This document shows, piece after piece, positions 30,312 to 30,953 of a DNA stretch of 36,219 nucleotides (position 1 is its first letter; every line of letters begins with the position of its first letter). Source of the stretch: a virus (lineage: Duplodnaviria; Heunggongvirae; Uroviricota; Caudoviricetes); IMG/VR virus record IMGVR_UViG_2879765931_000005. One strand, given 5' to 3'. The notes beneath the pieces were generated by a model. The model was not told where the DNA came from. It did not search any database and saw only the letters and a program-made list of their open reading frames with translations. A program made the position numbers and the translations under genes.

Positions 30312-30378
30312 GTTCTTTTTTTGTGGTGAAAGATGAGGCAAAATTATCGCGTAACATGCTAACAATGGAGTTTGTTTT

Positions 30379-30861
30379 GTGATAAAGCCATTTTTAATGA
30401 CGGTTGCAATATTAACCTCTTGCTGTGCTCAGGCGAAAATACTAACAAATGAGGAGATTGTTTCACGATTTATTAGTAACGTTAAAACATCTGCAGATAA
30501 TGACGTTGACTTGGATACAGATGGATTCAGACAACTGAGGATATCGTGCCCATCCCCTTCTGCCAGCGGTGCGATTATATTGAGAAAAGCTTCTTATGAA
30601 TTCGGCAAAAGTATAGGTGTATTTGATTTTGCAAACAATGCATCACCAGCGACGATGACATTTTTGATCCCAATATATAAAGATGATGATTTTGATTCAG
30701 ATACTGTTGGTTTTACATTTGCGTTCAAGATGCCAAGAGGCCAGTTTTTTGTAGATGTAAAAGAAAACGGGAATATCAGAGCTGGAGTTAATGTTAATGG
30801 CGAGTCGGGAGTGACCTACGAAAATTGCAAATTGAATATGAAAGATATTAATGATGATTAA
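30379..30861 (+). CDS. Predicted outer-membrane lipoprotein (160 aa), AT-rich moron
   Basis: GTG start with SD GGAG; signal peptide MIKPFLMTVAILTS-C with lipobox LTSC, +2 residue not Asp; markedly lower GC than flanking tail genes; own terminator. Confidence 0.6.
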   Translation: MIKPFLMTVAILTSCCAQAKILTNEEIVSRFISNVKTSADNDVDLDTDGFRQLRISCPSPSASGAIILRKASYEFGKSIGVFDFANNASPATMTFLIPIYKDDDFDSDTVGFTFAFKMPRGQFFVDVKENGNIRAGVNVNGESGVTYENCKLNMKDINDD

Positions 30862-30868
30862 TATATAA

Positions 30869-30893
30869 GCCGCCAGAAATTGGCGGTTTTTTT
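30869..30893 (+). terminator. Intrinsic terminator after the lipoprotein gene
   Basis: GCCGCCA-GAAAT-TGGCGG hairpin followed by TTTTTTT. Confidence 0.7.
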
Positions 30894-30953
30894 ATAGTGG
30901 AGACAGTATGGACTTACCTTCTTTACCTTCTCTTTCTTGGTAATGACTCCAAC

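Follow-up and report, generated by a model that had tools for sequence, protein, structure and literature searches.

A moron gene for a predicted exported beta-barrel protein at a cargo hotspot between the tape measure and N genes of a decayed Shigella/E. coli prophage

Temperate phages have hotspots for accessory and defence genes, as in P2 and P4, at which a fixed site between conserved genes is either empty or occupied by interchangeable cargo. Small accessory envelope proteins of phages include Cor (phi80, N15 and HK022), Llp (T5) and Bor (lambda). The moron gp15 of HK97, located beside the tape measure gene, codes for a superinfection-exclusion protein of the envelope, the effect of which depends on the tail of the incoming phage (PMC3594210). 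The prophage of Streptococcus phage TP-J34 encodes Ltp, an exported or lipid-anchored protein by which the injection of DNA is blocked (PMC3952083). The gene analyzed here is located in the IMG/VR virus record IMGVR_UViG_2879765931_000005, a stretch of 36,219 nucleotides referred to at its full length as the window. The stretch is a decayed Shigella/E. coli prophage, of a temperate Enterobacterales phage type with an HK97-type head and a Mu-type tail. The gene, found between the tail tape measure gene and the N gene, is a moron: a horizontally acquired, AT-rich and self-contained accessory gene.

The window gene is similar to HK97 gp15 (Cumby et al. 2012; PMC3594210) in several respects: both are AT-biased extra genes in the tail operon of a temperate coliphage, both adjoin the tape measure gene and have an envelope product (a predicted one in the window), and in both a classical moron architecture is tolerated in a Q-antiterminated late operon. 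The two differ in that gp15 is a small inner-membrane, YebO-like protein with a proven exclusion phenotype, encoded on the other side of the tape measure gene, whereas the window product is a predicted exported beta-barrel with no sequence relationship to gp15, and no promoter was found for its gene. Ltp offers a plausible model of mechanism for envelope proteins whose genes adjoin a tape measure gene, although it comes from a Gram-positive host, has a helical structure and a gene in the lysogeny module, and is no homolog of the window protein. According to later literature, Ltp reportedly acts by targeting the incoming tape measure protein.

The moron gene is a single open reading frame for 160 amino acids (30379-30861, + strand) with a GTG start at 30379, the same start as in the RefSeq annotation of identical copies. 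A spacer of 67 nt (30312-30378, +), in which no consensus promoter was found, holds the ribosome binding site (RBS), GGAG at 30367-30370, 8 nt 5' of the GTG. The upstream border of the slot is the tail tape measure gene (28362-30311, +, 649 amino acids), so annotated in the identical copy in E. coli FDAARGOS_944 (L001; loci compared with the window carry L numbers and related proteins P numbers). The downstream border of the cassette is an intrinsic terminator (30867-30896, +), formed by a GC-rich hairpin at 30867-30889 followed by a T-run; the hairpin has a folding energy of -14 kcal/mol (z = -3.3), and none of 200 shuffled sequences folded as well. It is followed by the RBS of N (GGAG, 30899-30902) and the first 10 N codons from 30908 (30899-30938, +), collinear with L001 from 12659 onward. 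The cassette (30312-30907) carries its own RBS, its own terminator and a new RBS for N. With a GC content of 0.369, the moron gene lies well below the tape measure gene (0.521) and the N gene (0.547). An initial annotation of this region, made from the sequence alone, had described a low-GC gene with its own Shine-Dalgarno sequence and an intrinsic terminator, followed by IS1; all of this was found, the insertion sequence beginning at 30939, and we consider the anatomical part of the explanation close to certain.

In the sister prophage of E. coli ATCC 43886 (L002), the tape measure region is 97% identical to the window at the DNA level and the cassette, its upstream spacer included, is absent: the tape measure stop codon and the N start are separated by 15 nt, compared with the 597-bp cassette of the window prophage. 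It is this 15-nt gap in sister prophages without the gene that identifies the gene as a moron. The 3' end of the tape measure gene is common to 33 E. coli genomes, 11 of which carry the cassette. In all tail-slot lineages checked, five besides the window, the GC content of the gene (0.34-0.40) lies below that of its flanks (0.47-0.57), and terminator-like hairpins are also located 3' of the homologs in L003, L004, L006, L008 and L009. The gene is therefore extra DNA relative to close relatives, deviates in base composition and has its own terminator, in agreement with the moron definition of Juhala and Hendrix, as summarised in PMC3594210. Together with the export signal described below, these features bear out the proposal of the initial annotation that this is an accessory moron with an envelope-targeted product.

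With four N proteins as probes, 222 IMG/VR loci were collected, in 207 of which the junction between tape measure gene and N could be scored. The slot was empty (less than 100 nt) in 106 loci and held a member of the family of the window protein, PHROG 5586, in 35. The other loci contained a 167-amino-acid Sec-secreted protein (phrog_8976; 22 loci), a 174-amino-acid N-terminally anchored protein (phrog_5485; 16 loci), a 153-amino-acid secreted protein with a weak match to the PHROG 5586 family hidden Markov model (HMM) and similarly placed cysteines (3 loci), a bPH_2 membrane protein (2 loci) and, in one locus each, lipoproteins of 151 (L022; LAGC before D) and 225 amino acids (L140; LSGC before K, DUF7424) and multi-spanning membrane proteins of 90 (L172) and 190 amino acids (L225). 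On the opposite strand, an N-terminally anchored 148-amino-acid protein was encoded in five loci (L102, L106, L108, L114 and L115) and a 145-amino-acid protein with two transmembrane segments in four (L136, L144, L148 and L163); such cargo must have its own promoters. Six loci (L150-L155) contained an unexplained insert of 421 nt (GC 0.48) with no convincing exported reading frame, and four were artefacts or large inserts.

More than ten unrelated cargo types thus use the slot, and almost all of them are Sec-secreted proteins, lipoproteins or membrane proteins; the named families (phrog_8976, 5485, 3832, 8257 and 3707) are all of unknown function. As judged from this occupancy, the tape measure-N junction is a recombination and cargo hotspot. 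It resembles the P2 and P4 hotspots in being empty in some relatives and holding unrelated cargo in others, and is unlike them in three respects: the cargo consists almost exclusively of small secreted, lipoprotein or membrane proteins, with no PADLOC match for the window gene; the slot lies inside the tail operon; and it has a shared terminator of its own. The near-exclusive targeting of the cargo to the envelope is the strongest argument, although an indirect one, for an envelope-level function such as superinfection exclusion.

The flanks of the slot were compared over the last 75 nt before the N start in the N group probed with L009 (L131-L163), in which several kinds of cargo have a common 3' border, made up of one hairpin (AACCCGCTTCGGCGGGTTTTTTT) and one N RBS. 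It therefore appears that the terminator is part of the slot and that cargo is exchanged between conserved flanks; the terminator may itself serve as a recombination flank. Locus L022 (1920-2375) codes for a nearly identical N protein beside a different cargo, the AT-rich (GC 0.35) 151-amino-acid lipoprotein, with MKKALIILSCLFCLAGC preceding D and no family match; its terminator hairpin closely resembles that of the window. The destination of a lipoprotein is decided by its residue at position +2, Asp or not (the Lol sorting rule), and the +2 Asp of the L022 lipoprotein suggests retention in the inner membrane.

The window protein begins with a signal peptide of 19 residues (N-terminus MIKPFLMTVAILTSC15C16AQA19/K20, the slash marking cleavage), and all full-length members of the family have one; the protein is very likely exported, as far as its sequence can tell. 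Cys57 and Cys150 remain conserved in members with as little as 24% identity, and are most simply read as a periplasmic disulfide. Cleavage by signal peptidase I (SPase-I) at AQA/K would leave just these two cysteines in the mature protein. This site, four residues past the candidate lipobox cysteine, aligns with the AxA/K sites of other members, and P0003-5, P0010, P0013, P0014, P0019, P0022, P0023 and P0027 have such sites and no cysteine at that place.

The initial annotation had described an outer-membrane lipoprotein, on the basis of the motif LTSC. MIKPFLMTVAILTS followed by C15 indeed satisfies the lipobox rule, applied here in a PROSITE PS00013-style form ([LVI][ASTVI][GAS]C, Cys at 15-35, positively charged N-region, hydrophobic core). 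The rule is satisfied by the Shigella/E. coli allele only, the lipobox cysteine is not conserved in the family, and the competing AQA/K site is present in the same allele. Lipoprotein status is hence not a family trait and is ambiguous even for the window allele, for which we consider lipidation plausible but slightly disfavoured. The 74%-identical ortholog of Yersinia enterocolitica keeps L-I-S-C-C and does not satisfy the rule as annotated. In this ortholog (L004, 5975-6040) an upstream ATG (MKKPIYLCL, then a stop) is out of frame with the annotated start (MMLISCC...), so that the gene is either frameshifted or 5'-truncated, or was mis-sequenced; as annotated it lacks a usable signal peptide.

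The mature domain, of approximately 15.5 kDa, is acidic (pI 4.6). With an alignment of 15 mature-domain sequences, AlphaFold2 gave a model with a predicted local distance difference test score (pLDDT) of 88 and a predicted template modelling score of 0.84, composed of an N-terminal helix and eight beta strands; a run on nine sequences including the signal peptide (pLDDT 46) was set aside in its favour. The model is read as a beta-barrel, a fold class that is clear but points to no function. A sequence-profile search of the PDB found only Calx-beta (E = 0.08), which was judged to be noise, and scans of the protein and of 15 family members against Pfam, NCBIfam and PADLOC gave no match; none of the 15 matched Pfam at E values up to 10.

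The gene had been taken for an orphan. The product matches, over its full length, the small phage protein family PHROG 5586, of unknown function (E = 9.7e-89, with residues 1-160 aligned to all 161 positions of the profile), its only PHROG match. A word-indexed search of 5.8 billion proteins identified 9 relatives, and an exhaustive HMM search of 1.84 billion cluster representatives identified 19. Among the hits of the latter search, P0018, P0024 and P0025 are large Ig-repeat proteins and were rejected as repeat or compositional matches. The exact protein is present on at least 1000 contigs, mostly of Shigella flexneri, S. sonnei and E. coli, always labelled "hypothetical" or "phage protein", and literature searches on the accession, the slot and the prophage found no description of the gene. 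Coliphage vB_EcoM-720R4 has an allele of 50% identity in the same slot, as do 101 of 5426 complete E. coli genomes, and P0010 and P0014 (35-43% identity) are likewise encoded between the tape measure gene and N.

The more distant P0019, P0020 and P0022 (24-28% identity) are encoded on phage-plasmid-like contigs (L006 740-1270; L007 1-452; L008 2919-3413), between replication or partition and toxin-antitoxin genes, beside IncFII RepA, ParA and a CI-like repressor. In both contigs scanned for terminators, L006 and L008, one is located 3' of the gene. A region of this plasmid-maintenance type is expected to be expressed in the carried state, and the two settings, tail slot and phage-plasmid-like contig, indicate that the gene moves between phage contexts. 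A search of plasmids with a distant homolog found only a 720R4-type prophage integrated in an IncF plasmid. The initial annotation had recommended mapping the homologs relative to tail modules, and had named homology to a housekeeping lipoprotein at a non-prophage locus as evidence that would speak against it; members down to 35% identity occupy the tail slot, distant ones are phage-plasmid-like, and no member was found at a housekeeping locus in the contexts examined, all of which were phage tail modules or phage-plasmid-like contigs.

We tentatively propose that this moron of a cassette hotspot, with its exported beta-barrel product, probably acts as an envelope-level exclusion factor. The barrel would be exported through Sec and probably stapled by the Cys57-Cys150 disulfide. 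In most family members it would be a soluble periplasmic protein freed by SPase-I, and in the window allele it may instead be lipid-anchored through Cys15. In the lysogen the cassette would be transcribed alone, transcription halting at its own terminator, and during lytic growth a Q-antiterminated late transcript would read through that terminator. The prophage encodes a lambdoid Q-type late antiterminator (8963-9652, +; PF06323, E = 3.7e-91), and late transcription is therefore expected to pass the terminator, following the model in PMC3594210. In the envelope of the lysogen, the protein would block a step in the entry of a superinfecting phage, for example the penetration of the periplasm by tail tip, tape measure or hub, or access to an envelope component.

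Variation among alleles fits an interaction surface. At 97% nucleotide identity to the window allele, those of E. coli UMNF18 and of strain 401651 show ratios of non-synonymous to synonymous changes of 10:5 and 8:4. Seven of the 10 and four of the 8 non-synonymous changes fall in residues 21-40 (window 30439-30498), the N-terminal helix, and the signal peptide is invariant. Such clustering would fit a fast-evolving interaction surface or diversifying selection. The tape measure protein is 71% identical to that of vB_EcoM-720R4 (L003), with a strongly divergent C-terminal third: the two are approximately 95% identical over the first 470 residues and then almost unrelated, except for the last 45 or so. 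The divergent stretch (window 29800-30150, codons ~480-600) forms a mosaic boundary adjoining the slot and the divergent N (53% identity). Co-divergence of moron, tape measure and N (50%, 71% and 53%) was considered as a sign of a specific partner and rejected, because groups with near-identical N hold several cargo types or none.

Several observations weigh against an exclusion factor expressed from the prophage. A sigma-70 consensus scan of 30100-31000 found 0 sites, against 2.9 expected by chance, and no sigma-70-like site was found upstream of the gene in L003 either; manual and automated promoter searches gave nothing convincing, and weak or non-consensus promoters may escape a consensus scan. 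In L012 the gene is closely packed among the tail genes, separated from them by gaps of 16 and 17 nt and lacking a terminator; in this lineage it must share a transcript with them and looks late-expressed, which keeps a role in the lytic cycle open. In L018 (2128-3500), an IS1 insertion close to codon 37 interrupts the same 160-amino-acid gene, which can therefore be dispensed with in that contig at least and is not universally kept. The non-synonymous excess consists of very few substitutions, and a recombined segment could give the same pattern. No similarity to any characterised exclusion or defence protein was detected in Pfam, NCBIfam or PADLOC at E values up to 1. The structure prediction for which the initial annotation had called yielded a confident model of a helix and eight strands; searched with Foldseek against the PDB and viral models, it had no match below E = 0.01 and generic matches only. 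No expression or phenotype data for the gene were found in the literature.

A further-reaching version of the exclusion hypothesis may be formulated. The tape measure-N junction of phages with HK97-type head and Mu-type tail would be a dedicated, hot-swappable site, equipped with a shared terminator, for collecting envelope exclusion proteins; the PHROG 5586 barrel would intercept the tail tip or tape measure of related phages, using its rapidly varying helix as the specificity surface, and the Shigella/E. coli branch, probably with Yersinia, would have switched recently from a soluble to a lipid-anchored form. As a whole, we consider this combination doubtful.

If the product were an outer-membrane lipoprotein, as the initial annotation had it, it could block or inactivate a phage receptor from within the periplasm, in the manner of Cor and Llp. 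The window lipobox is formally valid: LTSC, together with Cys15, Lys3 and a short hydrophobic core, satisfies the rule, the residue at +2 is not Asp, so that an outer-membrane destination is expected, the 74%-identical Yersinia ortholog shares SCC, and two other cargos of the slot, those of L022 and L140, are clear lipoproteins. Against this, lipobox-like matches are lacking in 12 of 14 signal peptides of the family, P0021 (FANA/G with a non-canonical Cys13) does not satisfy the rule, full-length members use AxA sites with which the window AQA/K aligns, and SPase-II cleavage would produce a protein with an extra unpaired Cys16 and a tether of only about 8 residues before the first helix. The window protein also differs from Cor, Llp and Bor in being larger and in its modelled eight-stranded barrel. 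No similarity to the three was detected in Pfam, NCBIfam, PADLOC or PHROG, the presence of Cor and Llp models in each library being unconfirmed; the statement of the initial annotation that the protein does not look like any of them is in agreement with this result, PHROG 5586 being the only family matched. On this evidence receptor masking is unlikely.

A late-expressed envelope helper of the phage's own lytic cycle, for example one that keeps progeny from adsorbing to debris or modulates lysis or release, would have no part in lysogenic conversion. Such a role would be in line with the orientation of the gene, which is that of the late tail operon, with the lack of a detected promoter of its own, with the tight packing in L012 and with the conservation of the same slot at 35-50% identity. 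It is less easily reconciled with about half of the closely related tail modules doing without the gene, with the terminator 3' of the gene in most lineages, with the distant members in plasmid-maintenance regions and with same-slot cargo that in some cases is encoded on the opposite strand. We regard this role as somewhat less probable still than receptor masking.

A more specific form of exclusion or of self-protection would be the inhibition, in the periplasm, of a peptidoglycan hydrolase or another incoming enzyme, in the manner of PliC, MliC and PhiA or of a type VI secretion immunity protein. Identity with MliC/PliC (PF09864) was considered on the basis of a shared SASGA string and the cysteine pattern, and was rejected on sequence grounds: hhalign of the mature domains against E. 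coli MliC gave a probability below 1%. The SASG string is located directly after Cys57 and not at the MliC position, the SxSGAxY and YxxxTKG loops are not equivalently placed, and other, unrelated barrels score higher than MliC, PliC and PhiA. An inhibitor of this type is improbable.

The initial annotation had offered exclusion or virulence as alternatives. Exclusion is the most plausible of the functions considered and is strengthened by the slot survey, whereas neither Cor/Llp-type receptor masking nor a Bor-like role has specific support. A Shigella virulence or serum-resistance factor, or another host-directed conversion function, might be suspected since the prophage carries the type III secretion system (T3SS) effector gene ipaH, with its NEL domain, and since so many of the contigs with the exact protein are from Shigella. 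The same and sister alleles, however, are also known from E. coli of bovine, porcine, rodent, food and wastewater origin, from Yersinia and from an isolated coliphage; no similarity to Bor or other virulence families was detected, a periplasmic protein is not surface-exposed, and the L018 copy is interrupted. Such a function is very improbable. A structural or assembly component of the Mu-type tail, as the position between tape measure and hub genes in many lineages might suggest, is hardly credible for a product with a cleavable signal peptide, which would be exported away from cytoplasmic tail assembly, and for a gene that is absent from the empty slots and from the sister prophage, replaceable by unrelated membrane proteins and represented by homologs outside tail modules.

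The baseplate genes expected after the tape measure gene are missing from the window, and the initial annotation had accordingly placed the lipoprotein gene at the end of the tail module, where baseplate genes should be. This does not hold for intact copies. In L001, the tape measure gene is followed by the moron gene, by the gene for a "DNA circularization protein" (Mu N homolog) and by the baseplate genes, of P, gp45, gp46, gp47/J and gp48 types, and then by fibre genes, a DUF4376 gene, ipaH and a methyltransferase gene. Window 26533-30938 corresponds to L001 8284-12689 (99.9% identity) and window 32608-36219 to L001 20847-24456; the intervening 8157 bp of L001 (12690-20846) are replaced in the window by IS1 and a remnant of an IS3-family element. 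The flanks being collinear with L001, the moron gene is in its native place and does not stand in for the baseplate.

IS1 (768 bp, 30939-31706, - strand), recognized by the InsA and InsB reading frames, its terminal repeats and the break in synteny, is the left edge of the deletion that took N, the baseplate genes and the tail-fibre genes; the N fragment severed by it belongs to a Mu-N-like "DNA circularization" tail gene. In a megablast search of complete E. coli genomes the same 689 bp were found in 11 genomes, the match stopping exactly at window 30938. A 5'-truncated transposase remnant of the IS3 family (IS600-like; 31707-32607, +) replaces prophage DNA together with IS1, and homology to the intact prophage restarts at 32608, within the tail-fibre-associated DUF4376 gene (PF14301, 32472-33083). 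The baseplate genes are absent because this IS1/IS600-associated deletion removed 8.2 kb, and their absence is unrelated to the moron gene.

One and the same prophage is present in the window and in FDAARGOS_944, but its decay involved different insertion sequences. In the window these are IS3-family insertions of about 1.26 kb in the head-tail joining genes and a further IS1, and the FDAARGOS_944 copy has ISEc60 within the portal and sheath genes (regions of such decay: window 22190-23450, 24318-25579, 4277 onward and 10767-11441; L001 1298-2488 and 7011-8201). At the prophage end the window encodes an intact IpaH-type T3SS effector of 547 amino acids with leucine-rich repeats and a NEL E3 ligase domain (33266-34909, -), annotated as frameshifted in FDAARGOS_944, and next to it an S-adenosylmethionine-dependent methyltransferase (35225-35893, -).

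For Shigella genomics, these results mean that what looks like a tail module closing with a lipoprotein gene is the scar of an IS1/IS600 deletion, in the remnant of a prophage that carries ipaH. What is new is an undescribed envelope-targeted moron, the class of morons itself being already known. The gene alone would be one more uncharacterised prophage moron, and the context of the slot is more useful. The pair of natural alleles, one soluble and one possibly lipid-anchored, is suited to asking whether anchoring changes function. Present in hundreds of Enterobacterales prophages, the slot constitutes a compact and testable catalogue of candidate factors for envelope-level exclusion or lysogenic conversion, a class of envelope cargo that is missed by defence-system finders aimed at cytoplasmic enzymes.

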